Shown in pieces: positions 6,816-58,447 of a DNA stretch of 64,000 nt. The position numbers and the translations under genes are program-made. The notes under the pieces were generated by a model. That model was not told the DNA's origin. It worked only from the letters and a program-made list of their open reading frames with translations, and searched no databases. The DNA comes from an uncultured Candidatus Saccharibacteria bacterium (GTDB lineage Bacteria; Patescibacteriota; Minisyncoccia; UBA6257; 2-01-FULL-56-20). Position 1 is the stretch's first letter. Each line of letters starts with the position of its first letter. The stretch spans positions 92,310-156,309 of the forward strand of contig CAZDFQ010000002.1 in assembly GCA_964505005.1 (NCBI GenBank), in the 5' to 3' direction.

Positions 6816-7100
6816 TTCAATTTAATTTTTTGACAAATATTCTGCAATTTGTATAATCTTTTCATACTTTTCGGCTATTGATGCAAAGATATGCATAACT
6901 TAATTCGGATGGGCGCATTTGTAGTGCGCTATTTGGATGCATAGAAAGGTCGAAAGAAATTCAGCATCACTTGTACATTTGGCAGCGAGGCAACGCAAAA
7001 ATAACCAAACTTTTGTGATTGCCGAGCGAACCAAATGATGGAACGAAGTTCCATGATTTTTGTGGTGAGTTTGGACCACTAGAGTGAGCTTAGAGAATAA

Positions 7101-7397: not shown

Positions 7398-7458
7398 TTT
7401 TTAATTCGGATGGGCGCATTTGTAGTGCGCTATCCGGATGCCAATAATTGCCAATGCA

Positions 7459-7492
7459 AAAACCGCCCTGAGCTTGTCGAAGGGCGGTTTTT
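7459..7492 (+). terminator. Rho-independent terminator after the KH-protein gene
   Basis: aaaaccgccctgagcttgtcgaagggcggttttt: a GC stem followed by a U-run. Confidence 0.6.
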
Positions 7493-7700
7493 GTTGTGCC
7501 TAATTGACCCCGCACCTTTTGGTAAGAATTCACGCAGCACTTTCTTTCATCATAAAATATATGTAACTCGTGCGCCAAAAGGTGCGGGGTTGACTCTTTT
7601 CACTGTTCTGTGGTAGTTTGGCTTCAGCATAATCCAGCCGCACAGCAATGGGCTGTGAGGGCCGGCCGCTAATGACAATCGAATAGAGGAGGGAACTGCA

Positions 7701-9259: not shown

Positions 9260-9354
9260 TATTCGCATGAGCGCATTCGCATTTTCCGCCAGAGGCGGAC
9301 CCGCCTCTGGCGGGCGCGTCACCTCTAAGGCGCGAGCGAGCGCTTTTCGCATGC

Positions 9355-11093: not shown

Positions 11094-11489
11094 TTATCTT
11101 ACTCTGGTTTTCTTATCCAAACGTTTAGCTTGATGCCCCGCCGGCGCGTTATTCTCGTTTTGGTGGGCAGGCAGGGCCGCCAAGTCCGCTGGCGTTCGTA
11201 AATCGTTTTTTCGGCAATAAAACGCCTCGGCGTCCGGAAAGCAGTTTTGCCCCTTTTGGTTCGTCTGGAAGAATAGTTTTTCATCGTTAAAGTAATTTTA
11301 TCAATTCTTCAGGTGACTACAAAATTTAGGGGTAAATTATTTTACCTTTCTTTATTTTTAGAAAAGGCGTCGGTTTATCGAATGGGCGTTGCCGCAGTAG
11401 CGGCAACGCCCTTCTTGCTTTTCAAGTTGTCTAAATCCGCTTTTTTTGTTACATTACGAAAACAGAGTTTTTACAATCCGCCAGCTGAA

Positions 11490-12833
11490 ATGGTTCTCAG
11501 TAAAAGAAAAAATTTAGACAAAAAAGCTCGTGTATTCGTGGCAATGTCCGGCGGCGTGGATTCGTCGGTCGCGGCTTGGCTGTTGCAAAAGCAGGGTTAT
11601 GATGTTATCGGCGTTTTTATGAAATGTGTCGGCCCCTCGACGGGGTTCGGGGTAGACTGTGCCGAGAGCGATGCCGAGGATGCCCGCCGGGTTGCTGAAA
11701 AATTAAGTATTCCTTTTTATGTTTGGGATTTTGAAGAGGAATACAAGCGCCGGGTGATGGATTATATGATTGACGGCTACCGGCAAGGGCTGACGCCGAA
11801 TCCGGATGTGATGTGTAACCGCGAAATTAAATTTGGGCTTTTTTTGGAGAGAGCGCTCGAAATGGGGGCGGATTATGTGGCAACAGGGCACTATGTGCGG
11901 AAACTTTGTTTTGCGAGAACCGGCGTCGCTCCGACTCCGGCGGTCGGAGCGCGCCTGCATCTCGGTTCTGCGGCTCGCTTACGGCGAGACCAAGCCCGCA
12001 GAACCTCCGATAGCTTCTCGCAAAACAAAGTTTCCTTTGGATTGGGTATTGCAAGGGATTTGAATAAGGACCAATCCTACTTCCTCTGGACTCTGAATCA
12101 GGAGCAGTTGAAGCCCTGCCTTTTTCCAATTGGCGATTATCTTAAATCCGAAGTTCGGGAAATCGCCCGTCAAGCCGGTTTGCCGACCGCCGACAAAAAG
12201 GATTCCCAGGGTATTTGTTTTTTGGGTAAGGTAACGCTTGATGAGTTTCTGAAGCAATATATTCCGGCGCGGCGCGGGGCGGTTTTAACGACTACCGGCC
12301 AGGAAATCGGCGAACATCAGGGTGCCCAGTTTTATACAATCGGACAAAGGCATATTTCGATCGCGAATCGCCAAGGGCAAATCGCCAATAGTCAGCCGCT
12401 CTATGTTGCCGAAAAAGATGTTGCAGCTAATATGCTGGTAGTCGCCGAAGGCGAGGACAATCCGATGCTCTATAAAGAGGAAGTTGAATTAAAGGATGTC
12501 AATTTTATCAGCCCAGAACATTCTAACATTCTGCAGAATGTTAGAATGTCAGTATCGGCTCGAGTTCGTTATCGCCAACCGTTGGTACCGGCAATCCTCT
12601 ATAAGCTAAAAGCTAAAAGCTATAAACTCGTTTTTGACCAGCCGGTCAAATTCGTGGCCCCGGGTCAGTCCGCGGTGTTTTACAAAAAGGGACAAGGGAC
12701 AAGGGACCCCGCACCAAAGCCCCGAAGGAGAACAAGTTCCCTACGGGGCAGGCAAGCTTGGTACGGGGCAGGCAAGAGAGAGGGAGAGTTCGAGCTGCTG
12801 GGCGGCGGAATAATAAAAACTGTTATGCTATAG
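11490..12833 (+). CDS. mnmA: tRNA-specific 2-thiouridylase MnmA, enlarged by two in-frame repeat insertions
   Basis: VFVAMSGGVDSSVAAWLL (PP-loop), ATGHYVR, NKDQSYFLW, KKDSQGICFLG and ELLGGGII. About 447 aa from the ATG at 11490, versus about 360 aa for the canonical protein. Upstream hairpin gggcgttgccgc-agta-gcggcaacgccc plus a U-run at 11384-11420. Confidence 0.85.
   Translation: MVLSKRKNLDKKARVFVAMSGGVDSSVAAWLLQKQGYDVIGVFMKCVGPSTGFGVDCAESDAEDARRVAEKLSIPFYVWDFEEEYKRRVMDYMIDGYRQGLTPNPDVMCNREIKFGLFLERALEMGADYVATGHYVRKLCFARTGVAPTPAVGARLHLGSAARLRRDQARRTSDSFSQNKVSFGLGIARDLNKDQSYFLWTLNQEQLKPCLFPIGDYLKSEVREIARQAGLPTADKKDSQGICFLGKVTLDEFLKQYIPARRGAVLTTTGQEIGEHQGAQFYTIGQRHISIANRQGQIANSQPLYVAEKDVAANMLVVAEGEDNPMLYKEEVELKDVNFISPEHSNILQNVRMSVSARVRYRQPLVPAILYKLKAKSYKLVFDQPVKFVAPGQSAVFYKKGQGTRDPAPKPRRRTSSLRGRQAWYGAGKREGEFELLGGGIIKTVML
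11899..12035. repeat. 137-bp palindromic element with perfect 21-bp terminal inverted repeats, inserted in-frame in mnmA
   Basis: Left IR ggaaactttgttttgcgagaa (11899-11919) is the exact reverse complement of the right IR ttctcgcaaaacaaagtttcc (12015-12035). The interior carries nested palindromes such as cgctccgac...gtcggagcg. It encodes a ~45-aa extra block between ATGHYVRK and GLGIARDLNKDQSYFL. Confidence 0.7.
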
Positions 12834-15396: not shown

Positions 15397-15513
15397 TTTA
15401 GAAAACTCCTTATCTGCTGAATATTATTGATAGTTGTTGCCTTTTCGTGCAGCGCGCAGGTGGCAGCCAGCCCAAGGCTGGTCGGCCTCGGGCCGAAGCG
15501 GTCAATCTTTTTC

Positions 15514-15765
15514 ATGTATTTTGTTTACATCTTGAAAAGCAATAGGAGCGGTAAGCTTTACAAAGGCTCAACTTCAGATTTAAGACGTCGCCTCAAAGAG
15601 CATAATAACAGAGAAGAATATTCTACAAAAAGTGGCATCCCATGGAAATTGGTCTATTATGAATGTTTTTTGAATAAATCAGACGCGCTTCGAGAAGAGA
15701 AATTTCTTAAATCCGGGAAGGGTAGAGAACGAATTAAATTTTTGTTAAAATATACTTTGAAATAA
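15514..15765 (+). CDS. GIY-YIG nuclease-domain protein (YhbQ/UPF0213-like), ending 3 nt before tRNA-Tyr
   Basis: MYFVYILKSNRSGKLYKGSTSDLRRRLKEHNN (GIY...YIG motifs). Start placed at the ATG 15514 by homology. Confidence 0.7.
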   Translation: MYFVYILKSNRSGKLYKGSTSDLRRRLKEHNNREEYSTKSGIPWKLVYYECFLNKSDALREEKFLKSGKGRERIKFLLKYTLK

Positions 15766-17254: not shown

Positions 17255-17345
17255 AAGCCGCCAAACCTGCCTGCGGCAGGCAGGGGGCCGGGAAAACATC
17301 GGCTCGCTTGCCCGCCGAAGCTTCAGCGGAGGAGGGAACCATATT

Positions 17346-19701: not shown

Positions 19702-19932
19702 GAGATGTGAACGTTGCTCATGTTTTCCCGCCAGCAGTTTGTCCGAAAATACGCTATCAATTTCCCCGGCGAGGAATTTGCGTTCGCTTCCCGCCCGCCT
19801 GAGTTGCTCTCCCTGCCCGCCCCGCGTTGCGGAGCAAGGCAGGCGGGAGGCAAGTCGGGCGCGGTCGGCCCGCGCGAGGGTTTTCTTAACAAGCCGTTGG
19901 CGACCGAGATAAAATCTATTAGGACTTCAAAA

Positions 19933-21648: not shown

Positions 21649-21687
21649 TATTAGAATGTAGAAAATAGAAAGTAGAATGTAGTGAAT

Positions 21688-23060: not shown

Positions 23061-24137
23061 TTGCCACCTCGGATTTACATGAAGAACACGATAGGAATAA
23101 AAAACCCCTTTGGCGCGCTAAGACGTGCAATCGTTGGGATTGTCGATGGCGCCGCCGTACCGACTCTTCATAAAGCGATGATTCCGACTTTACCCCAGAA
23201 ATATCTGTATTTTTTTAAGCAGAATGCAGGCAAGCCATTCCCCGAAAAATATGTTGAAGAAGCAAAAAAAGAACTCGAAAATTTTGTCGGGATTTTAGAG
23301 GGAGAGGACGTGATCGTAGATAGGCCTGACAAGATTGATTTCTCGAAACCCTTTATAACTCCGCATTGGTCGGAGCCAAGCGGGCTGTATGCCGCTATGC
23401 CTCGGGATATACTGCTTGTTGTAAAGAATAAAATTATCGTTGCGCCTATGTCTTGGAGGTGTCGCTACAGAGAAATCGAAGCATATCTCGATTTACTGAC
23501 GCGGTATAAAGAATTCGGGTACGAAATTGTTATCGCCCCCAGACCGGAATTAAAAGACGATTTATATGAACCGGTTGCGGGCGACATCGGAGATACATTT
23601 GAGCCGGTACTCAACGGAAGCGAACCGGTATTTGATGCGGCGGATTTTATTGTGTTAGATAAAATAATAATAGGCCAGAAAAGTCTTGTTACTAACGATG
23701 CTGGGATTAACTGGTTAAAGAGAGAAGTCAGCAATGATTTCAAAATATATATACTGAAATTTAACGACCCCCATCCAATGCATATCGATGCCACATTTCT
23801 GCCGTTGCGGGAAGGCCTTATTCTTATAAATCCTGAGCGAGTGGACGCCGAAACAGTACGTGCTCAACTGCCAACAGAAATAAAATCGTGGGAATTTGTA
23901 GAGGCTCCTTTTCCTGTCATGAAGAGTGATTCCCCGCCGAGGTTTTTTAGCAGCGACTGGTTAAATATGAACATTCTAATGCTGAATTTAAGCATGGCCA
24001 TAGTTGAGGAGAATCAAACGCCCCTGATTACGTTACTCGGGGAGCGCGGTATCAAAGCGATTAGTTGTCCTTTTCAATACTTTCAATGCTTTGGGGGGTC
24101 GTTTCACTGTGCTGTGGTTGAAACTAGCCGGCTATGA
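23061..24137 (+). CDS. Amidinotransferase/DDAH/arginine-deiminase superfamily enzyme (C-terminal GGxxHC catalytic motif)
   Basis: The C-terminus ...CFGGSFHCAVVETSR matches the GGGxHC catalytic-Cys motif of the GME/pentein fold. Confidence 0.45.
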   Translation: MPPRIYMKNTIGIKNPFGALRRAIVGIVDGAAVPTLHKAMIPTLPQKYLYFFKQNAGKPFPEKYVEEAKKELENFVGILEGEDVIVDRPDKIDFSKPFITPHWSEPSGLYAAMPRDILLVVKNKIIVAPMSWRCRYREIEAYLDLLTRYKEFGYEIVIAPRPELKDDLYEPVAGDIGDTFEPVLNGSEPVFDAADFIVLDKIIIGQKSLVTNDAGINWLKREVSNDFKIYILKFNDPHPMHIDATFLPLREGLILINPERVDAETVRAQLPTEIKSWEFVEAPFPVMKSDSPPRFFSSDWLNMNILMLNLSMAIVEENQTPLITLLGERGIKAISCPFQYFQCFGGSFHCAVVETSRL

Positions 24138-25468
24138 AGTTTCTAATCCGCGGCGGCCAGAAATTGAGCGGCGAAATCAACGTCAGCGGCGCCAAAAATT
24201 CCGTGCTCAAAGGAATGGCTGCCTCGGTTTTGTCAGCCAAGCCGGTTATCCTGGACAATGTGCCCTTAATTGAGGACGTTTTCCGGATGCGGGAATTACT
24301 GGAGCATCTCGGCGCTGAAGTGGCCATACCTGCCGGTAGACAGGGAGAAGGCGGCCCGCTTCGCCCGCCCGCTCCGACTCGGAATCGAGGCGAGCGAAGC
24401 GAGGCGAGCCGAACGCTTCGAATCAATCCCTCTTCAATCAAAAAAACCGAACTTAAAAACGAGATTGCTGAACGGCTCCGGGCTTCGATTGTTCTGGCTG
24501 GCCCGGTGCTCGCCCGTTTGGGAAAAGTAAGTTTTCCTCACCCGGGCGGCTGCGTTATCGGCAAAAGACCAATTGATGTTTTTTTGGCTGGCTGGCAGGC
24601 CATGGGCGCTAAGGTCCGGGAAAGCCAAGCTGGTTTTCTGGTTTCGGCCCGAAAATTAAAAGGCAAGGATTTTACTTTCCGCCTGGTCAGCGTTACCGGC
24701 ACGGAAACTTTGATGTTGACCGCGGCTTTGGCCTATGGCAAAACTGTTTTGCGGAATGCCGCGATGGAGCCCGAAATCCCTCACTTGGCGGAATTTCTTA
24801 ACGACTCCGGCGTGAAAATCTCCGGGGCCGGCACCCCGACCATTGAAATTATCGGCAGTAATGGCCGCCTGCTCCATCCCAAAAGTCCTTTTCAAGTCCT
24901 TAGTGACCGGATTGAAGCCGGCAGTTTTCTGATTCTGGGCGCGGCTTTGGGAAGAAAACTGAAAGTAGTTAACTGCATCCCGGAACATCTGACGGCTTTA
25001 ATCGCCGCGCTGCAGGAAGCTGGTGTCGGACTGGAGATTGGTCAGGACTGGATTTCTGTCAGTCAGCCGCGAAAATTAAAAGCCGTGGATGTCCGGACTC
25101 ATGAATACCCCGGCTTCCCAACTGACCTTCAGGCGCCTTGGGCGGTGCTGATGACTCAAGCCCAGGGAGACAGCTTGATTTTCGAAACGATTTTTGAAGG
25201 CCGATTTTCTTACATCGAAGAACTAAAGAGAATGGGCGCGAAAATTTTGACGCTTGACGAGCACCGCATTTTGGTCAAAGGCCCGGCTCATCTTCGCGGC
25301 CGGGAAATTGAAAGCCCGGACTTGCGGGCTGGCTTGGCTTTTGTCATTGCGGCTTTGCTCGCCAAAGGAGAATCAGTAATCAACAACATTTATCAAATCG
25401 ACCGCGGCTACGAAAAAATCGACGAGCGGCTGAAAAATTTAGGCGCGGACATTTCTCGTCTCAGCTGA
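24134..25468 (+). CDS. murA: UDP-N-acetylglucosamine 1-carboxyvinyltransferase MurA, carrying an in-frame ~28-aa repeat-derived insertion
   Basis: MKFLIRGGQKLSGEINVSGAKNSVLK...FPHPGGCVIGKRPIDVFL (catalytic Cys loop) ...LRAGLAFVIAAL. Confidence 0.85.
   Translation: MKFLIRGGQKLSGEINVSGAKNSVLKGMAASVLSAKPVILDNVPLIEDVFRMRELLEHLGAEVAIPAGRQGEGGPLRPPAPTRNRGERSEASRTLRINPSSIKKTELKNEIAERLRASIVLAGPVLARLGKVSFPHPGGCVIGKRPIDVFLAGWQAMGAKVRESQAGFLVSARKLKGKDFTFRLVSVTGTETLMLTAALAYGKTVLRNAAMEPEIPHLAEFLNDSGVKISGAGTPTIEIIGSNGRLLHPKSPFQVLSDRIEAGSFLILGAALGRKLKVVNCIPEHLTALIAALQEAGVGLEIGQDWISVSQPRKLKAVDVRTHEYPGFPTDLQAPWAVLMTQAQGDSLIFETIFEGRFSYIEELKRMGAKILTLDEHRILVKGPAHLRGREIESPDLRAGLAFVIAALLAKGESVINNIYQIDRGYEKIDERLKNLGADISRLS
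24341..24425. repeat. GC-rich palindromic insertion inside murA, encoding QGEGGPLRPPAPTRNRGERSEASRTLRI
   Basis: cgcttcgcccgcccgctccgactcggaatcgaggcgagcgaagcg forms a stem (cgcttcgc/gcgaagcg). It shares cgcccgcccgc with the 50613 element family and cgctccgactc with the mnmA insert. MurA homologs have about 20 residues here; this one has about 50. Confidence 0.55.
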
Positions 25469-28180: not shown

Positions 28181-28297
28181 GAATCTCTAATTTCTAAATC
28201 CTAATTTCTAAACAATTTCAAATATCAAAATTCAAAATGGTTTGAGATTTGATATTTGGATTTGTTTAGGATTTAGAGATTAGGATTTAGGATTTTT
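28181..28297. repeat. AT-rich nested palindrome (taggattt/aaatccta family): outer arms aatctctaatttctaaatcctaatttctaaacaa / ttgtttaggatttagagattaggatttaggatt and an inner dyad caaatatcaaa/tttgatatttg
   Basis: Reverse complementarity of the arms seen directly. Related shorter copies at 32095-32160, 32525-32610 and 43715-43745. Confidence 0.55.
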
Positions 28298-29477: not shown

Positions 29478-30230
29478 ATGATTGAAGAGCCGAGAATTAT
29501 TTATGAAGACAAGAATTTCGTGGCCGCGGCCAAGCCGGCTGGCCTGCTTACCCACCCGCTAAAAGATAAAAACTATAAGCTAAAAGCCGAGGAGTACACC
29601 TTGACCGATTGGCTTGTTCGAAAATATCCGGAGATGAAGACCGTCGGCGATGCTCCGGAAACCTGCCCGACTTCGCATGGACGAAGTCCAGGCGGGCGGG
29701 TCCGCCCCGGCATTGTTCACCGCTTGGATAAAGATACTTCAGGTATTTTACTGGCCGCGAGAAACCAAAAATATTTTAAATATCTGAAGTCGCTTTTTAA
29801 GAATCGCCAGATTAAAAAAACTTATCTGGCGGTTGTTTTCGGCCGATTAAGAGATAAAGAGGGAACAATCGCCAAAGCAGTTAAAATCAAGAAAGGCACC
29901 GTCAAAAGAACGGTTTTCAGGGGCAAAATGGCCAAAGAAGCCCTGACGCATTACCGAGTGAAAAAGGTTTTCAAGATAGGAGGCGAAGAATTTTCTTTTT
30001 TGGAAATCGTTCCGGAAACCGGCCGGACGCATCAAATAAGAGTCCATCTTGCTTCAATCGGGCACCCGATTGTGGGCGACCGAATTTACGGCTTCAAAAA
30101 AACAGCCGCTACCCGATACCCGCTACCCGATACCCGATTGATGCTCCACGCCTATTCGCTGGAATTTTCCACCGAAGAGGGAAAGAGGATTAAACTGGAA
30201 GCCGAACCGCCTGACACAATGATGATATAA
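29478..30230 (+). CDS. RluA-family pseudouridine synthase, with a short tandem-repeat-encoded insertion
   Basis: GIVHRLDKDTSGILLAAR (the HRLD catalytic motif). Confidence 0.8.
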   Translation: MIEEPRIIYEDKNFVAAAKPAGLLTHPLKDKNYKLKAEEYTLTDWLVRKYPEMKTVGDAPETCPTSHGRSPGGRVRPGIVHRLDKDTSGILLAARNQKYFKYLKSLFKNRQIKKTYLAVVFGRLRDKEGTIAKAVKIKKGTVKRTVFRGKMAKEALTHYRVKKVFKIGGEEFSFLEIVPETGRTHQIRVHLASIGHPIVGDRIYGFKKTAATRYPLPDTRLMLHAYSLEFSTEEGKRIKLEAEPPDTMMI

Positions 30231-32089: not shown

Positions 32090-32160
32090 TTCGTTGCCGT
32101 TCTTATTCAATTTTCTTTTAAAATCCTAAATTCTAAATCCTAAACTCTAAATAAATTCCA

Positions 32161-32608: not shown

Positions 32609-34321
32609 ATGCGCCTCCCCGTACCTATCCCCCAGCTTAAAGACAAATTGCTTCAGGAGAATCTTATTTCTCCAGAACGTTTCGACGCCCTGCTCGCCGA
32701 AGTTGAAAGGAAGAAAGAAAACATTCTCGATGTTTTGGTTTCAGAAAACATCGTTGAAAGAAATTACATAAATGAATTCGTCGCTTCCGCGCTGGGAGTT
32801 GAGCTGGCTAATTTGTCAGCAAAAAAAATTGATGAAAATGTCGTCAAGCTGTTGCCCGAAGACCTGGCCCGGCAACGCCGCGTTATTTTATTCGGCAAAG
32901 AGCCGGATGGCGCGCTTGAGGTGGCGATGGCTGAGCCGAGCGACCTTGAAACCATTGAATTTTTGGAAGAACGCCTGAAAGCAAAAGTTAAACCGTATTT
33001 AGCAACCCCAGAAGATTTAAACCGCAGCTTTTCGATTTACGGCTTGGAATTAACTCAAAATTTCAAAAAAATTATTGAAGAGAATATCCAGGAATCGCTC
33101 CGCAGCCGCACTAAGACCATTGAAGAAGCGGCGGCCCAGTTGCCGATTGTTGCTATCGTTGACAATCTTTTATCTTACGCTACTTCCTTGCGCGCTTCTG
33201 ACATTCATCTGGAAATTTTGGAAGAAGATACGCTCGTCAGATACCGCATTGATGGCATCCTTTATGAGATTTTAAGAATTCCCAAAGAAGTTCATCCGGC
33301 TTTGGTAGCGCGGATTAAAATTTTAAGCGGTCTTAAAATCGACGAACATTATAAACCTCAGGACGGTCGATTCCGTCACAGTGTTGCTAATCAGGTTGTC
33401 GATGTCCGGGTCTCGGTGATGCCGACTTTTTACGGCGAGAAAATAGAGATGCGGCTGCTGGAATCAACCGAGAGACCTTTGTCGCTTGAAGAATTGGGGA
33501 TGCTTGAGGAAGTTGAAAAAATTGTTTCGGAAAATTTGAAAAAGGCCTATGGGATGATTTTAGTTTGCGGGCCGACCGGTTCCGGAAAGACAACGACTCT
33601 TTACGCTATGATGAATATTTTGAATAAACCGACGGTGAACATCGTGACCATCGAAGACCCGATTGAGTACAACATCCGCTATGTCAATCAGACGCAGATT
33701 AATCCGGCGGCCGGCATTACTTTTGCTTCGGGGTTGCGCTCTATTTTACGACAAGACCCCAATATAATTATGGTCGGTGAAGTCAGGGACAGCGAGACGG
33801 CCGGCATAGCGGTGCAGTCGGCACTGACCGGGCACCTGATTCTTTCTTCGCTCCATACTAATGACGCGCCAACGGCCGTACCTCGGCTTTTTGACTTGGA
33901 GGTGCCGCCGTTTTTGGTGGCGGCCACTCTTAACTTAGTGGTGGCTCAGCGTTTGGTCAGAAAAATCTGCACTCAATGCATTTACTCATACAAGATAACG
34001 CCGGCCATCAAAGAGTCAGTCGAAGAACAGCTTGGAGTTTTAGGCATAAAAGGCGGAGAAACCATCCCCACCATTCTTTTTAAAGGTAAAGGATGTCCGG
34101 CTTGCAATTTTGCCGGCTATCGGGGCCGACTCGGCATCTTCGAAATTTTAGAGATTAATGAATCAATCAAAAAAACGATAATTGACCCGCGCTTTAGCTT
34201 AGAAACCGTCCGCCAGGCCGTCAGAGAAAACAGCTTCAAAACGATGTTCGAAGACGGTTTATTGAAGGTTCAACTGGGATTGACTACAATTGAAGAAGTA
34301 CTGAGAGTGATAAGAGAATAA
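32609..34321 (+). CDS. pilB: Type IV pilus assembly ATPase PilB (GspE family)
   Basis: N-terminal T2SSE_N domain. LVCGPTGSGKTTTLYAMM Walker A; Asp/His boxes; C-terminal tetracysteine CPACNFAGYRGRLG. Confidence 0.9.
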   Translation: MRLPVPIPQLKDKLLQENLISPERFDALLAEVERKKENILDVLVSENIVERNYINEFVASALGVELANLSAKKIDENVVKLLPEDLARQRRVILFGKEPDGALEVAMAEPSDLETIEFLEERLKAKVKPYLATPEDLNRSFSIYGLELTQNFKKIIEENIQESLRSRTKTIEEAAAQLPIVAIVDNLLSYATSLRASDIHLEILEEDTLVRYRIDGILYEILRIPKEVHPALVARIKILSGLKIDEHYKPQDGRFRHSVANQVVDVRVSVMPTFYGEKIEMRLLESTERPLSLEELGMLEEVEKIVSENLKKAYGMILVCGPTGSGKTTTLYAMMNILNKPTVNIVTIEDPIEYNIRYVNQTQINPAAGITFASGLRSILRQDPNIIMVGEVRDSETAGIAVQSALTGHLILSSLHTNDAPTAVPRLFDLEVPPFLVAATLNLVVAQRLVRKICTQCIYSYKITPAIKESVEEQLGVLGIKGGETIPTILFKGKGCPACNFAGYRGRLGIFEILEINESIKKTIIDPRFSLETVRQAVRENSFKTMFEDGLLKVQLGLTTIEEVLRVIRE

Positions 34322-34435
34322 AAATCCAAATGTCAAAATCCAAATTCCAAATCAAATCCAAAATCCCAATGGCAAAAATTTGGATTTTGAACTTCGAGCT
34401 TGATTTGACATTTGAGTTTTAGATTTAGGATTTTA
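34322..34435. repeat. AT-rich nested-palindrome MITE-like element, copy 2
   Basis: See 26643-26757. Confidence 0.6.
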
Positions 34436-36166: not shown

Positions 36167-36336
36167 CCGAAGAATCTAGAATCTAGAATTTAGAAAATAT
36201 GAAACTTCGTTTCATCAATTGGTTCGCTCGGCGAAAATAAATGTATAATTCATTTACTTTCTCCTCGCTGCCAATTGTAGAATCTAGAATTTGAAAATTG
36301 GTAAAATATGTAAGACGGTAGCAGTGGCGATAAAAA

Positions 36337-37994: not shown

Positions 37995-38057
37995 TTTAGA
38001 ATCTAGAATTTAGAAAGTAGAATTTAGGAGCAATTTTGTTATTATTTAGGATAGGGT

Positions 38058-40277: not shown

Positions 40278-40970
40278 TTAGGATTGTTTGGGTTGCTTAT
40301 AAAATTTCTTCCCAATCTCTTCAAACGCCTGAGCAAGAGTCTTTTTATCCCGACTGTTGATTTTTTTAAGCACAAATTCGCCCGCTTTCATTCTGAAAGC
40401 CGCTGATTCACGCAGATTTTTACGCTGATTTATGCTGATATTATCCGCGTTTATCTGCGTTTCTAATCCGCGTTTATCGGCGTTCCGGCGGATACCTATC
40501 CGCAGTCGCCAGAAATTTTTCGTTTTAAGTTTCCGAATGACCGATTCTACTCCTTGATGTCCTGCCGAGCTCCGGCCGAAGGAAATCTTATATTTGCCTA
40601 ATTCGATATCTGAGTCGTCATGAACTATTAAAACTTCTTGCGGCTGGAGGTGATATTTTTTTAAAGTTTTGTCAACAAAATTTCCCGATTCATTCATATG
40701 GGTTCCGGCTTTTAGCAGTTTAAATTTATGAAATTTCGTTTCCTCAATTAGTTCGCCCCGCCCGCCTGAGTTGCTCAGGCAAGTCGGGCGGGTCGTCGAA
40801 AACAAACTGGTGTTTGCTTTCTTCTCGCTGCCGATTGGAAAATTTAAGAGAGGATTTTTACTTAGATAATCGACAGCCAAAAACCCAACATTATGGTAGG
40901 TGCCTTCGTACCTTTTTCCAGGATTGCCCAGGCCAATGATGATTTTAATTTTAGAAAGCTCCTTAAACAT
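40278..40970 (-). CDS. pth: Peptidyl-tRNA hydrolase, carrying an in-frame repeat-element insertion
   Basis: IIIGLGNPGKRYEGTYHNVGFLAVDYL...KFKLLKAGTHMNESGNFV...LIVHDDSDIELGKYKISFGRSSAGHQGVESVI. 230 aa versus about 190 aa for the canonical protein. Confidence 0.8.
   Translation of the reverse strand: MFKELSKIKIIIGLGNPGKRYEGTYHNVGFLAVDYLSKNPLLNFPIGSEKKANTSLFSTTRPTCLSNSGGRGELIEETKFHKFKLLKAGTHMNESGNFVDKTLKKYHLQPQEVLIVHDDSDIELGKYKISFGRSSAGHQGVESVIRKLKTKNFWRLRIGIRRNADKRGLETQINADNISINQRKNLRESAAFRMKAGEFVLKKINSRDKKTLAQAFEEIGKKFYKQPKQS
40745..40840. repeat. Copy of the cccgcccgcctgagttgctcaggcaagtcgggcggg-core element, inserted in-frame in pth
   Basis: About 85% identical over ~95 bp to the intergenic copy at 50613-50730, including the ...tttgctttcttctcgctgccgattgg right arm. 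Confidence 0.7.
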
Positions 40971-41189
40971 GATGTCAATCTGCGGATGAAATGCGAATTA
41001 GGCGAATCAGGAGGCTAAGTGAACATAATTTACATTCGCAGTATTCGCACAAAGATTCGCATCATTCGCATTATGTCAAGCGGCTCGACCGATGCGAATG
41101 ACCCGAATTATACACGAATGACACGAATAGATTAAAAATGTGATACAGCCCTTGAATTCTCTATTTCTATACTATACAATACCCCATTA

Positions 41190-41738
41190 ATGAAGCAATT
41201 CTTAGCGTCGTTTCTTGAAGTTGTTGAGATAGTCATTGTTGCCTTTGGGGCAGTTTTTTTAATCCGGAGTTTTCTTGTTCAGCCGTTTTTAGTGAGCGGT
41301 TCGAGTATGGTCCCCAACTTTTCAAATGGCGACTATCTTTTGGTGGATGAAGTTACCTATCGTTTTCGGCCGCCCGAACGGGGCGAGGTGGTTGTTTTTC
41401 GCTACCCCAAAGATGACTCGGTTTATTTCATTAAAAGAATAATCGGACTTCCCGGCGAGCGAGTCCAAATTAAAGACGGTCAATTGATTGTCTTCAATAA
41501 GGAGTATCCTTCAGGACTAAGATTAAATGAAAAATATCTTCCGCTCGGCCTGACAACAGCAGGAAATCTAATCTTTCAGGTTCCGGAAAATGATTATTTT
41601 GTTTTGGGGGATAATCGGTCTTACAGTCTTGATTCGAGAACTTGGGGGATGTTGCCAGTCAATGATATTGTCGGCTTGGTCCAGTTGCGACTGTGGCCCC
41701 CGACTTCTTTCAAGGTTTTTGCGGCGCCGCCATATTAA
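41190..41738 (+). CDS. lepB: Signal peptidase I (S26)
   Basis: VSGSSMVPNF (catalytic Ser box), FIKRIIGLPGERV (Lys box) and GDNRSYSLDSRTWG. Confidence 0.85.
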   Translation: MKQFLASFLEVVEIVIVAFGAVFLIRSFLVQPFLVSGSSMVPNFSNGDYLLVDEVTYRFRPPERGEVVVFRYPKDDSVYFIKRIIGLPGERVQIKDGQLIVFNKEYPSGLRLNEKYLPLGLTTAGNLIFQVPENDYFVLGDNRSYSLDSRTWGMLPVNDIVGLVQLRLWPPTSFKVFAAPPY

Positions 41739-41781
41739 TAATAAGTCCTATTAGTCCTATAAGTCCTATTGGTCCTATATT

Positions 41782-43110
41782 ATGAGAATAAAGAAAACAA
41801 GCGAGAAAAAAAATAAAAAAAATGTAGAAGTTATTTTGCGGGCGCCGCGAGGTATGCACGATGTACTGCCGGCTGAAATGGGTTGGTGGGATAAAATTTG
41901 GAAAGCCGTCGATAAACTGGCTGATTTTTATAATTTTCAACAAATTGAGACCCCGATTTTAGAATATGCCGCCCTGTTCCAAAGGGGCGTCGGCGAGGAA
42001 ACCGACCTGGTTGCTAAAGAAATGTATTATGTAAAAACAAAAGGCGAAGATGCTTTAGTGCTTCGACCGGAGGGCACGGCGCCAATGGCCCGAGCTTATC
42101 TTGAACACCACCTCGGCCGAACCTCTTCTCTTCAGAAATTGTTCTATAAAGGGCCGATGTTCCGTCACGAACGTCCCCAAGCCGGCCGTTTCCGCCAGAG
42201 CACCCAGGCCGGTTTTGAGATAATCGGCGGCCCCAATGATTCAATCTACGATGCCCAGATTATTTTGGTATTCGAACGACTATTAGAAGAACTCAAAATT
42301 AAAAATCCGGTTCTTAAAATAAATTCCATCGGTTGCCGGGTCTGCCGGCCGCTGTACAAACGCCAGCTCCAGAGTTATTACAAGGACAAAGAAAAGAAGC
42401 TTTGTCTTGATTGTCAGCGCCGGCTTAAAACCAATCCGCTGCGACTTCTCGATTGCAAAAACGAATCCTGCCAGCCGTTTAAAAGCAGCGCGCCCAATCT
42501 TCTTGATAAACTCTGCACGGCTTGCAACTCTCATTTCAAAAGCGTTCTCGAATATCTTGAGGAATTGAATTTGCCGTATCTGGTGGATAACACTCTGGTT
42601 CGCGGCCTTGATTATTACAATCGGACGGTTTTCGAATTTTTCGTTGAGGGTTCGGGTTCGGAAGTCGGCGCTTTGGCCGGCGGCGGCCGGTATGATTACC
42701 TTGTCGAGATGCTCGGCGGCCGGCTGACGCCGGCGGTCGGCGGCGCTGTGGGCATCGAGCGTCTAATTGCGGTTATGAAAGCCCGGGGGATTGAAGCGTC
42801 GAAACAACCAGCCAAAAAAGTTTTCATCATCCATGTCGGAGAGCTGGCTAAGAAAAAATCGTTGAATCTTTTGGAAGCTTTGCGGAACGCCGGAATTTCG
42901 GCCAGCGAAGCCCTGAGCCGCGATTCGCTCAAAACCCAGTTACGGCTGGCTGACCGCGAAGGCGTCAAGATCGCTTTGATTTTCGGCCAAAAGGAAATTT
43001 TTGAAAATAGCATTATCATTCGAGATTTTGAAACCCACTTGCAGGAAACGGTGCCAATGGATAAAATCGTCGAGGAAGTAAAAGTCCGGCTGAAGAATAA
43101 AAAAGATTAG
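41782..43110 (+). CDS. hisS: Histidyl-tRNA synthetase
   Basis: LRAPRGMHDVLP, class II motifs (...LRPEGTAPMARAY..., FRHERPQAGRFRQSTQAGFEIIG, GGGRYD) and a C-terminal anticodon-binding domain. Confidence 0.9.
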   Translation: MRIKKTSEKKNKKNVEVILRAPRGMHDVLPAEMGWWDKIWKAVDKLADFYNFQQIETPILEYAALFQRGVGEETDLVAKEMYYVKTKGEDALVLRPEGTAPMARAYLEHHLGRTSSLQKLFYKGPMFRHERPQAGRFRQSTQAGFEIIGGPNDSIYDAQIILVFERLLEELKIKNPVLKINSIGCRVCRPLYKRQLQSYYKDKEKKLCLDCQRRLKTNPLRLLDCKNESCQPFKSSAPNLLDKLCTACNSHFKSVLEYLEELNLPYLVDNTLVRGLDYYNRTVFEFFVEGSGSEVGALAGGGRYDYLVEMLGGRLTPAVGGAVGIERLIAVMKARGIEASKQPAKKVFIIHVGELAKKKSLNLLEALRNAGISASEALSRDSLKTQLRLADREGVKIALIFGQKEIFENSIIIRDFETHLQETVPMDKIVEEVKVRLKNKKD

Positions 43111-43289
43111 AAATAGCCCCCTAAATCAATTTATATTCGCAGCATTCGCATCTATTCGCCCGCCCGCCTGAGTTGCTCAGGCAAGTCGGGCAGGTAGATT
43201 CGCATTATATTCAAGCCGCTTGACATAATGCGAATGATGCGAATCATATGCGAATGTCGCGAAAAACCGGATTATGATAGATTAAAATT

Positions 43290-46275: not shown

Positions 46276-46417
46276 ATGAAATCCTGAAATGGGGTATATA
46301 AATTCGTAGCATTCGCATCCATTCGCAGATTAGCATTATATTCAAGCCGCTTAACCATAATGCGAATGACCCGAATTATATATGCGAATGATGCGAAAAA
46401 TAATTAAGATTAAGATT

Positions 46418-50612: not shown

Positions 50613-50730
50613 ATGAAGCTCCGCTTCATCAATCGGTTCGGCCCGCCCGCCTGAGTTGTTCAGGCAAGTCGGGCGGGTCGGCGAAAATAAATGCTTCGCA
50701 TTTACTTTCTCCTCGCTGCCGATTGTAAGG
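50613..50730. repeat. Full-length intergenic copy of the GC-core palindromic element (left arm atgaagctccgcttcat hairpin, core cccgcccgcctgagttgttcaggcaagtcgggcggg, right arm ...tttactttctcctcgctgccgattgtag)
   Basis: Related copies: 40745-40840 (in pth), 43160-43200 (core only), 19787-19870 (core with a nested insertion), 36199-36290 and 56233-56314 (arms without the core). Confidence 0.7.
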
Positions 50731-54778: not shown

Positions 54779-54936
54779 GGGCGCCTTACTTCAGAGCGAC
54801 ATTCGTCGAGTTCTCTCTTGGAGGCGCCTTTCCATCCCCATTGAAAGGGGATTTTTGTTGTTTCAAATCAAGTCAACTTAAAATAATTAATTCGGATGGG
54901 CGTATCCGTAGCGCGCTATTCGAATGCCAATCAATC

Positions 54937-56231: not shown

Positions 56232-56423
56232 TATGAAGCTTCGCTTCATCATTTGGTTCACCCGGCAATCACAAGAATCTTTTTGTTCTTGAGTTGCCTC
56301 GTTGCCAAATGTAGAATTAAATATAATGCGAATGGCGCGAATTCTTATGCGAATGTTGCGAATATTTTAATAAACCCCTCTGCGGTTATTCGTATCATTC
56401 GCACACATTCGTAAATTGGCATT

Positions 56424-57034: not shown

Positions 57035-57412
57035 ATGCAAAATTACAATTCAAAATTTAAAATTTTAATATTTTTAATTGTCATTTTAATCTTTGCATTT
57101 TTATTTTTGATTTGGCAGCGAGGTAGCGGCACGGCACCGCAGAATTTACTCGACTCTCTTGCTAAATGTCTGGCCTCGAAGGGTATAACAATGTACGGCG
57201 CCTATTGGTGCCCGCATTGCCAGAACGAGAAAGCAGCTTTCGGCAGTTCGTTCAGATATATTCCCTATGTGGAGTGCGCGGAAAATCCGCAAAAATGTCT
57301 GGAGGTCGGCATCAAGGGTTATCCAACCTGGATTTTCTCGGATGGCCGGCGCTTTGAAGGCGAGCAAGGGCTTCAGCGGCTGGCGCAGGAAAGCGGCTGC
57401 CCATTGCCGTAA
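57035..57412 (+). CDS. Membrane-anchored thioredoxin-fold protein (WCPHC active site)
   Basis: TM ILIFLIVILIFAFLFLIW, then MYGAYWCPHCQNEKAAFG (CxxC). Confidence 0.7.
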   Translation: MQNYNSKFKILIFLIVILIFAFLFLIWQRGSGTAPQNLLDSLAKCLASKGITMYGAYWCPHCQNEKAAFGSSFRYIPYVECAENPQKCLEVGIKGYPTWIFSDGRRFEGEQGLQRLAQESGCPLP

Positions 57413-57442
57413 AATCACGAATCACAAATCATAAATCACGAA

Positions 57443-58447
57443 TTGAGAATTATGGAAAACGATATTCAAAAACCTGAAGAAAAGAGAAAAAATGGCTTCT
57501 TGCTGCCGCTAAGCATTCTGCTTTCAACGTTTATCCTTGCCGGTGCCTGGATTTACACGACTGGTTTGAAAACAGCCAAAGTCGGGCAGCGGCCTTTGGC
57601 GGCGGCCAATGTCCAGCAATCTCTGCTGGAAGGGAAATTATTGCCTTCTCAAGGAATTGTTCTACCGGTTCGCTGGGGCGATTCGGGTGCGAAGCTCGTA
57701 AAAGCCGGCGTAATTGATGGTGGGAAATTCGAATCGCTCTACAATCGGCAGGGAGAAGAAAGCAAACGAAGTTTGTTTTCGGCGAGCGAACCGATTGATG
57801 AAGCGGAAGCTTCATACGCGAATCGTTCGGTTTCTCTCAATGAGCTCAGGCGATTGCTCTACGGAGAGGATAATGGCAATTTAAAAATTACCCGGGAAAA
57901 TTCCGGAATCATCGTCAATCTTCTGTGGGCTTTAGGTCTGGGTAACAAAAACGCGATTTTGGAGAGGGGGCCGATGGCTGACCCGCGTTATATTACTGCT
58001 AATTTCGCTTCCACCGGCGGCTGGACAATTGCCAAAGGCAGCGCGATGGAACATTACAGCAAACATGAGTTTGTTACTTTAACGCCAGAACAGCAGGCAT
58101 TGGTAGAAAGAGTCAGTCAAAATATCTATCGGCCGTGTTGCGACAATGCCACTTATTTTCCGGACTGCAACCACGGGATGGCCATGCTCGGCCTGCTCGA
58201 GCTGATGGCTTCGCAAGGCGTTTCCGAGGAGGAAATGTACCGGGCAGCGCTTAAAGTAAATTCGTTTTGGTTTCCGGATGTTTACCTGACGATTGCCAAA
58301 TATTTTGAGTCAAAGGGGATTGATTGGAGCCAGACGGATTCCAAAGAGGTCTTGAGCTATAATTTTTCGAGTGCCAGCGGCTACCAGCGGATTTTGAGCC
58401 AGGTCGCGCCGCCGGAAATCAATTCTAGCAGCGGTTGCGGCGTCTAA
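57443..58447 (+). CDS. Membrane-anchored Cys-rich extracytoplasmic protein of unknown family, paralog A (YRPCCDN...DCNHG...C-terminal GCGV)
   Basis: TM LLPLSILLSTFILAGAWIY. Homologous over about 250 aa to the C-terminal half of 60946-62436. Confidence 0.5.
   Translation: MRIMENDIQKPEEKRKNGFLLPLSILLSTFILAGAWIYTTGLKTAKVGQRPLAAANVQQSLLEGKLLPSQGIVLPVRWGDSGAKLVKAGVIDGGKFESLYNRQGEESKRSLFSASEPIDEAEASYANRSVSLNELRRLLYGEDNGNLKITRENSGIIVNLLWALGLGNKNAILERGPMADPRYITANFASTGGWTIAKGSAMEHYSKHEFVTLTPEQQALVERVSQNIYRPCCDNATYFPDCNHGMAMLGLLELMASQGVSEEEMYRAALKVNSFWFPDVYLTIAKYFESKGIDWSQTDSKEVLSYNFSSASGYQRILSQVAPPEINSSSGCGV

Follow-up and report, generated by a model that had tools for sequence, protein, structure and literature searches.

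In a 64,000-nt stretch (hereafter, the window) of contig CAZDFQ010000002.1, assigned to an uncultured Candidatus Saccharibacteria bacterium, we analysed a palindromic locus that begins at position 50,613 and found it to comprise two separable families of hairpin repeats, not one. The first, which we call the arm, is a structured element of ~76–81 nt in the core-less copies of the window and of up to ~84 nt elsewhere; the second, the core, is a GC-rich hairpin of exactly 36 nt (CCCGCCCGCCTGAGTTGYTCAGGCAAGTCGGGCGGG). Both families exist as distinct repeats, the fold of the arm is conserved, insertions are nested and recur at one site, and copies lie in frame within genes whose homologues lack them. 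We consider it likely, with a probability of roughly 0.7, that arm and core are selfish, non-autonomous hairpin repeats. Repeats of this kind, small palindromic repeats, are already known; what is new here is the two families themselves.

The arm begins with a 7-bp hairpin, P1 (ATGAARC-YYC-GYTTCAT), which directly abuts a long hairpin without any spacer. The base of the long hairpin, P2 (CAWTYGGT / GCCRAWTG), is conserved in sequence, as are two small pyrimidine-rich internal loops above it, with a GC/GC step between them (5′ side, TTCGCTC; 3′ side, CCTCGCT). The distal stem, P3, always pairs though its sequence varies, and it falls into at least two unrelated subfamilies (GGCGAAAATAAATG.. in copies A, B, D and F; GGCAATCACAAGAA.. 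in copies C and E). An earlier sequence-only reading of this DNA had divided the locus into a left-arm hairpin, a core and a right arm; the core is indeed a separate module, whereas the left-arm hairpin and the right arm belong to one structured unit, the 'caatcgg' and 'ccgattg' of that reading being the two strands of P2. The termini of the arm (ATGAAG.. and ..ATTGTA) are not complementary, with P1 lying outside the P2 inverted repeat at the 5′ end, and the 3′ end reads GTAG or GTAA and overlaps P2. Downstream, the arm is followed by GTAGRAT.. and the core by TCGGC or TAGAT. The ATG of P1 opens a short frame (MKLRFINRFARRK*), which we rejected as a leader peptide: the changes of P1 in copy E are compensatory and not synonymous, a ribosome-binding site is lacking, and the subfamilies do not conserve the peptide.

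The window holds six arm copies (A–F), not three, which score 43–100 bits (E 6e-8 to 6e-22) with a covariance model built from arm copies. The P1 pattern (ATGAARCTYCGYTTCATCA), allowing up to 3 mismatches, matches five times (0.14 expected), the left half of the core six times (0.39 expected) and the right half ten times (1.8 expected), and none of 100 shuffles reached any of these counts. The motifs are far above chance and present as described at all five loci that the sequence-only reading had named, and the failure against shuffled controls that would have refuted it did not occur. Its inventory was nevertheless incomplete, missing arms D, E and F and a reversed relative of the core; D, E and this relative were located by motif searches, and F later than the others, by the covariance model.

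Two of the arms carry a core. Copy A (50613–50727(+); 79 + 36 nt; 49 bits) sits between divergent genes, antisense to rmuC and 18 nt 5′ of the rmuC start codon, with its core at 50642–50677(+) inserted at GGTTCGG^TCGGCG. Copy D (40728–40839(+); 43 bits) lies in frame in pth, with its core at 40757–40792(+) as a precise 36-nt insertion at GTTCGC^TCGTCG. The remaining arms have no core: copy B (36199–36279(+); 100.5 bits; fold z = −5.0) lies between two pilin-like genes, embedded in an AGAATCT micro-array; copy C (56233–56313(+); 93.6 bits), of the second P3 subfamily, stands directly 3′ of the stop codon of a CcdA-like gene that encodes a membrane protein; copy E (6974–7054(−); 97 bits), of the same P3 subfamily as C, lies antisense between rpsP and a KH-domain gene; and copy F (57740–57815(−); 70 bits) is in frame in a conserved CPR (Candidate Phyla Radiation) gene at 57452–58447(+). 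Arm-only copies had been placed right after stop codons, which holds for C but not for B, where the arm starts 33 nt after the pilin-like stop.

The core family of the window numbers four near-identical copies and two divergent relatives. Besides the cores in A and D, a solo core of exactly 36 nt occupies the hisS–HIT spacer (43159–43194(+)), as had been noted before, and a split core lies between recO and a DUF11 surface protein (19790–19864(+); halves at 19790–19809 and 19848–19864). The insertion previously seen in the latter is a 38-nt GC hairpin in the core's loop (19810–19847(+)) and is itself a divergent core relative, keeping ..GCAAG.. and the GC outer stem with a different inner hairpin (CCGC-GTT-GCGG). 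The second divergent relative is a 39-nt reversed one with a different inner stem (CCCGCCCGCCTG...AAGTCGGGCAGG; 29662–29700(−)), in frame in an RluA-type gene (29478–30230).

The fold of the arm is strongly conserved and under selection. Across the 30 distinct arm copies and 23 pairs on which the fold statistics were computed, 94.1% of cells hold standard pairs, compared with 84.7 ± 0.7 after shuffling (none of 500 shuffles reached the observed value). Double-sided changes occur in 13 of the 23 pairs (64 cells versus 18.8 expected), and the covariation score is 0.278 versus 0.117. When the 3′ partner was slid by 1–3 columns, pairing fell to 29–47%, and 27 of the 30 copies retain the U·G wobble at the top of P2. 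Folded as DNA, both strands of the arm gave z-scores of −5.0 to −5.9 against shuffles, the arm–core composite of copy A gave −8.4, and the core alone gave −2.7 to −3.8.

The core occurs alone (43159–43194), within arms A and D, and interrupted by another GC hairpin (19810–19847), which agrees with the modular build by nested insertion that the sequence-only reading had proposed. The cores of A and D are identical at 35 of 36 positions, whereas their host arms share only 75% identity; the nearest relatives empty of a core are B and F (83–84%) for A, and F (82%) for D. Because the cores are this similar and their hosts this diverged, the core appears to have entered the two arms separately, and the simplest reading of the alignments would be two recent, independent insertions at one position, or precise loss. 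In D, the core is cleanly inserted between the C and the T of GGTTCGC|TCG; in A, it is found at the same place with one substitution, the insertion site within arms thus reading GGTTCG(C/G)^TCG. All four canonical cores have TTCG 0–3 nt away on the 5′ side and a T on the 3′ side, and three of the four sites read (G)TTCG(C/G)^TCG(G/T)C.

The same position is used elsewhere. On an unrelated metagenome contig (L030), a second arm copy, with another hairpin replacing P1, abuts the first, and in this second copy a GC palindrome of 20 nt unlike the core (CCTGCCTGCCGGCAGGCAGG) occupies the internal-loop position that the core takes in A and D; a palindrome similar to that of L030 is present in the window at 17267–17286. 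A 2.1-kb Logan contig of the same organism, covering window positions 41054–43188, starts in a repeat array and stops within the solo core, a pattern that assemblers produce at multi-copy sequence. Direct repeats of 6–8 bp or more flank B, D, F and two copies of another locus (L024a/b), most copies have no duplication, and the flanking repeats are explained by the periodic 7–10-nt micro-arrays that fill the spacers; a shared TA or GTA at both arm ends is possible. We rejected the two inverted copies around a gene in L024 as a composite transposon, as the enclosed gene encodes ribosomal protein L25/CTC; like the arm copy of L008, whose neighbours are rpoA and rplQ, they are no more than separate insertions into spacers. 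A search for solo P1 or P2 halves flanking a transposase gave only the tandem copy of L030 and a remnant at 57109–57123(−). This remnant, a 15-nt match with 1 mismatch to the 3′ end of the arm (CCTCGCTGCCAAAT), lies inside a thioredoxin-like gene next to an AT-rich palindromic stretch and may be a decayed in-frame copy.

Some insertions lie within genes. The pth gene carrying copy D (40278–40970(−); Pfam E 2e-40) encodes 230 aa, compared with 160–200 aa in homologues, and a block of ~35–37 aa (PIGSEKKANTSLFSTTRPTCLSNSGGRGELIEETKFH) is absent from all 11 CPR homologues aligned. The insert measures 111 nt (75 + 36), equal to 37 codons, and is read antisense to the element, giving a predicted peptide such as GSEKKANTSLFSTTRPTCLSNSGGR. 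In the AlphaFold model, the predicted local distance difference test score (pLDDT) exceeds 90 in the conserved fold, is below 50 for residues 43–72 and stays at 10-residue block means of ≤50 through residue 80; the insert is predicted to form a disordered loop between the helix at 25–38 and the strand at 84–87. Copy F adds 25 codons (YNRQGEESKRSLFSASEPIDEAEAS), likewise read antisense, to its conserved CPR gene. Eleven homologues at 60–66% identity lack exactly these 25 residues, and the native sequence around the insert (..FESL|YANRSVSLNE..) is intact. In D and F, one and the same antisense frame of the element is read; it is open in A, D and F and closed by a stop in B. We considered copy A, with this frame open, as part of rmuC and rejected it, as no start codon lies upstream and RmuC begins with the transmembrane helix. 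The reversed core relative adds 12–13 residues (TCPTSHGRSPGGR) just before the catalytic RPGIVHRLD of the RluA-type pseudouridine synthase; most homologues are without them, and at this loop some have a short GC repeat of another kind (..GCTCAGGGCAAGC.., 'STSSGQA'). Because the lengths are divisible by three and the frames are open, the sequences argue that the in-gene segments are translated, not spliced.

Other repeats accompany extra residues in further coding sequences. Period-10 arrays at 40401–40484 in pth (CGCTGATTTA / TTATCCGCGT) encode NADKRGLETQINADNISINQRKNL, with low pLDDT, and similar 'ADKRG / ISxNQRKSA' peptides in several CPR Pth homologues suggest that array DNA also colonises genes. 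The mnmA gene (11313–12833) contains a 137-nt palindromic element at 11899–12035 that is MITE-like (MITE, miniature inverted-repeat transposable element), its terminal inverted repeats being perfect over 21 nt (GGAAACTTTGTTTTGCGAGAA) and its interior holding two GC hairpins; at this element MnmA has ~38 extra residues relative to solved structures, and it has a further ~30-residue insert near its C-terminus, around 12687–12707. In murA (24134–25468), a GC-rich segment at ~24329–24412 with the unit GAAGCGAGGCGAGC adds ~24 residues (PAGRQGEGGPLRPPAPTRNRGERSEASR), which are absent from solved MurA structures. On another CPR contig (L028 1518–3980), an 820-aa LepA/EF4 homologue is swollen by array-derived peptides (TQINAD.., SPRESA..) and by an inserted domain of ~150 aa.

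Beyond the window, a degenerate 27-mer of P1 and P2, searched for exactly, gave four loci among 185,579 species genomes, all of them CPR/Patescibacteria metagenome-assembled genomes (MAGs): Liptonbacteria (two), Harrisonbacteria and Saccharibacteria. A 23-mer gave 26 metagenome loci, mostly from groundwater and also from soil, of which 22 carry the full element; the other four are high-GC coding sequence without the fold, about the number expected by chance. The covariance model (R1) yielded 31 matches in a de-duplicated search, 30 of them distinct (E 6e-8 to 5e-22), and a further 25 distinct arm copies lie outside the window, in Patescibacteria/CPR genomes and groundwater metagenomes. The arm was not found in the viral contigs, phage records or plasmids searched. 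In an Rfam scan of the window at the gathering threshold, only four tRNAs match; a permissive scan of copy B gave best E values of 0.2–0.6 for unrelated families, at <30% of their gathering scores; and searches of the literature, both for the sequences and for palindromic elements of CPR bacteria, gave no match. The best matches of the window's proteins are Patescibacteria, the nearest being Liptonbacteria-like Parcubacteria. Six arm copies in 64 kb, compared with one or two per contig elsewhere, suggest a burst of the arm in the window's lineage.

We propose that both families, together with further GC hairpins, would spread as selfish DNA. The core would insert with site preference just 3′ of TTCG(C/G), including the 5′ strand of the arm's internal loop. 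Copies would survive in spacers and in surface loops of proteins, the latter where their length divides by three and no stop closes the antisense frame, as in Rickettsia palindromic elements (RPEs). The conserved fold would be needed as single-stranded DNA by an enzyme acting in trans, either a transposase or nuclease of the HUH/Y1 kind or another; we infer single-strand recognition because the fold is conserved on DNA transcribed from either strand, terminal inverted repeats and consistent target-site duplications are lacking, and insertion follows a short fixed motif. The specific mechanism, in which the folded single strand is recognised by a hairpin-specific enzyme supplied in trans, as for repetitive extragenic palindromes (REPs) with their REP-associated tyrosine transposases (RAYTs) and for IS200/IS605 elements, is put forward tentatively, as one possibility. 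A bolder and more doubtful idea is that P2 and the pyrimidine loops of the arm form the recognition structure of an undescribed, CPR-wide, hairpin-specific DNA mobilisation system, with the 36-nt hairpins as hyperparasites homing into it.

Several observations weigh against selfish spread. The 64-kb window showed no transposase and no other gene for mobilisation, as judged from translations by eye and from Pfam searches of the element neighbours only, and the copies have no consistent target-site duplications or terminal inverted repeats. The empty sites are deduced from protein homologues at 50–66% identity rather than from empty and filled pairs at the nucleotide level. Most other genomes show only one or two arm copies per contig. 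Finally, P1, P2 and the internal loops, with their near-invariant U·G (27/30), are very well conserved across deep CPR lineages, and such deep conservation could equally mean a host function.

The alternative that survives best, unlikely as we hold it to be, starts from this last point: the arm would be a DNA site maintained by the host for binding or recombination by a conserved CPR protein (candidates being a nucleoid, replication or repair protein or a site-specific recombinase) and kept by selection, and the GC cores would be separate parasites targeting it. P2 and the loops hardly vary between Saccharibacteria, Harrisonbacteria, Liptonbacteria and the window genome while P3 drifts, most genomes have few copies, and the different GC palindromes at the same loop position in two genomes fit an exposed, structured site. 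A host site would, however, not be expected to look like a lineage-specific burst, as six copies in 64 kb versus one or two per contig do, and it would hardly explain why pth and another gene hold copies that all homologues lack. Moreover, the two P3 subfamilies co-occur in one genome and recur across genomes, and the copies are not syntenic between loci.

The elements had also been suggested to act as terminators or structured-RNA motifs. More generally, they might serve as RNA signals (terminators, mRNA stabilisers or processing sites) in 3′ or 5′ untranslated regions, which would suit the strongly conserved fold with its G·U pairs on the ATGAAG strand, the sense orientation of B and C behind stop codons, the several metagenomic copies 8–30 nt from gene ends or starts, and the 3′ end of one subfamily, which resembles an outward TTGCGT-17-TAGRAT promoter (56289–56317). 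We nevertheless regard such a role as improbable. No T-run follows the arm or the core, and a consensus terminator scan found 36 sites versus 29.6 ± 6.4 expected, with no excess; it flagged P1 of copy C, marginally, and no cores, while the genome does have ordinary terminators with a GC stem and a T-run (e.g. 7460–7495). Among ~28 copies, ~12 are co-oriented with both neighbours and ~8 are antisense to both, the rest lying between divergent or convergent genes, and two arm and two core-type copies stand in frame, antisense, in coding sequence. The neighbours (pilins, CcdA-like, rpsP, KH-domain, rmuC, rplY, rpoA, GNAT, YvcK-like, tRNAs) share no function, and no Rfam family matches. With no T-run, mixed orientation, three in-frame insertions in genes and a single marginal scan flag, the terminator role is not supported. 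What remains of the structured-RNA motif is the strongly conserved fold; one RNA is unlikely, and selection most likely acts on the DNA hairpin instead, because copies occur with either strand in the transcribed orientation. A hammerhead-like UUGAUGA on the reverse strand was rejected as well, the rest of the ribozyme core being missing.

Very improbable, finally, is removal of the arm at the RNA level as a very small intron-like sequence, which would explain its placement in essential genes and in a tRNA-like sequence of a Harrisonbacteria MAG (L003; between CTCC..CTCTTG and (T)A GGAG near 37/38, with flanks that pair) and would agree with a fold that brings the element's two ends together, but splicing needs neither the open frame nor the multiples of three of the coding copies (75 and 111 nt), that frame is interrupted by stops in intergenic copies of other lengths, the L003 tRNA is otherwise broken (the 3′ strand of its D stem is missing and a whole tRNA-Lys is nested in it), no ribozyme family matches, and a splicing endonuclease is not known from CPR bacteria. 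The split tRNA-like gene itself (L003 186–445(−)) consists of a 5′ part, GCACCCATAGCTCAACTGG, and a 3′ part, ..GGTTCGATTCCTGGTGGGTGCA, with matching acceptor strands, and encloses the whole tRNA-Lys and the arm near anticodon-loop position 37/38; it may represent a pseudogene, or something more unusual. On a bolder view of this copy, the arm may be tolerated in RNA genes since it is excised from the transcript.

Taken as selfish repeats, arm and core appear by analogy to behave most like RPEs, which in a reduced genome sit as in-frame palindromes in housekeeping genes unrelated to one another (Ogata et al. 2000/2002, summarised in PMC10969869). As there, several small palindromic families share one reduced genome, in spacers and in frame in housekeeping genes, the added peptide is compatible with the protein fold, and no associated transposase is known. 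In-frame palindromes absent from orthologues are found here in pth (+37 aa), the conserved CPR gene (+25) and the RluA-type gene (+12–13). The differences lie in the lineage (CPR versus Alphaproteobacteria), in length (~76–84 and 36 nt versus ~100–150 nt) and in the two-hairpin architecture of the arm with its conserved internal loop. Moreover, RPEs have an end tag, CGTC (PMC3733652), which is absent from the ends of arm and core, and there appears to be no sequence relationship to them.

REPs are GC-rich imperfect palindromes of 20–40 nt, dispersed, with G·T pairs and occasionally intragenic (PMC3733652). The core fits them in size, GC-rich imperfect palindromy, dispersion, G·T pairs and intragenic copies, while the arm (~76–84 nt, two hairpins) does not fit the size, which the core (36 nt) alone matches. 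Likenesses of the arm are its GTAG/GTAA end and the fact that recognition of a single-stranded DNA hairpin would explain conservation of the fold without a role as RNA. The GT[AG]G tag of REPs reportedly stands 5′ of the palindrome on the tagged strand; the GTAR of the arm is 3′ and overlaps P2, and the core has no tag, being flanked by TTCG(C/G) and TCG/TAG. We saw no head-to-head dimers of the REPIN type, and no RAYT gene in the window among translations inspected by eye and partial Pfam scans.

Cyanobacterial small dispersed repeats are said to be very short palindromic units that nest in each other and in MITE-like repeats, and we know of no enzyme for them. The present repeats share with them the nesting of very short palindromes into each other and the lack of a known enzyme; they differ in that the cyanobacterial units are ≤~26–30 nt, have no sequence relationship to ours and show a less specific choice of site than the reuse of one host-hairpin position seen here. 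Classical MITEs (Correia, ERIC, BOX, Nezha) are likewise non-autonomous and structured, sometimes intragenic in frame and sometimes equipped with outward promoters. Their terminal inverted repeats and target-site duplications correspond to those of a parent insertion sequence, whereas the arm has no terminal inverted repeats, places P1 outside the P2 repeat and shows no consistent duplication. We rejected integron attC sites, as CAWTYGG/CCRAWTG of P2 is not the R-box RYYYAAC...GTTRRRY and the copies are dispersed among housekeeping genes with no cassette array.

The genomes of CPR/Patescibacteria are tiny and regarded as poor in mobile DNA, and to our knowledge CPR genomes of roughly 1 Mb carry almost no classical transposases. 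The window's structured mini-repeats belong to at least two families, and probably to five or more; they fill spacers, nest in each other at a defined position and add 12–46 residues to the essential enzymes Pth, RluA, MnmA and MurA. Such insertions would account for many unexplained low-complexity inserts in CPR proteins and would add, to the 'coding palindrome' phenomenon of the Rickettsia type, a second and independent example from a reduced genome. The arm offers an unusually clean recognition structure for finding the enzyme that moves it. In practical terms, repeats of this type break metagenome assemblies and inflate apparent protein divergence. If the mobilisation-system reading were true, two tiers of structured selfish DNA would be remodelling essential proteins in ~1-Mb genomes.

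Several other repeats were observed in the window. A 16-bp perfect inverted repeat (ACCCCGCACCTTTTGG ... CCAAAAGGTGCGGGGT) at 7507–7590 encloses 52 nt, and the same 16-bp arms, with a compensatory change from T/A to C/G, flank a complete tRNA-Lys(CTT) in the Harrisonbacteria MAG (L003 320–419); this repeat appears to be either a processing stem or a third family of structured repeats. Almost every spacer contains micro-arrays with a period of 7 or 9–10 nt (TTTAGAA, AAATCCT, AGAATCT, TATTCGCAGC, AGTCCTATT), for example at 21652–21682, 28182–28295, 32121–32152, 34321–34370, 36171–36195, 37995–38027, 41744–41778, 43134–43159 and 57412–57443, and other CPR loci have motifs of their own. Three copies of TTAATTCGGATGGGCGCATTTGTAGTGCGCTATYCGGATGC, a GCGCA..TGCGC hairpin with an internal GTAG, lie at 6900–6932, 7401–7445 and 54887–54931, one of them adjoining copy E. 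A ~70-nt GCGAAT-rich module with a promoter-like TTGACA-16-AATCAT site is found upstream of lepB, the HIT gene and ftsZ (41054–41112, 43196–43266 and 46327–46400). Apart from repeats, a small GIY-YIG-type gene (15427–15765; open reading frame of ~112 aa), ending 4 nt 5′ of tRNA-Tyr (15769), is the sole nuclease-like candidate noticed by eye in the window. Two further GC-rich intergenic hairpins lie at 9284–9331 and 17255–17340, one with a 13-bp perfect stem (CCGCCAGAGGCGG/CCGCCTCTGGCGG) and the other with a palindrome, CCTGCCTGCGGCAGGCAGG, like the insert in the L030 arm.

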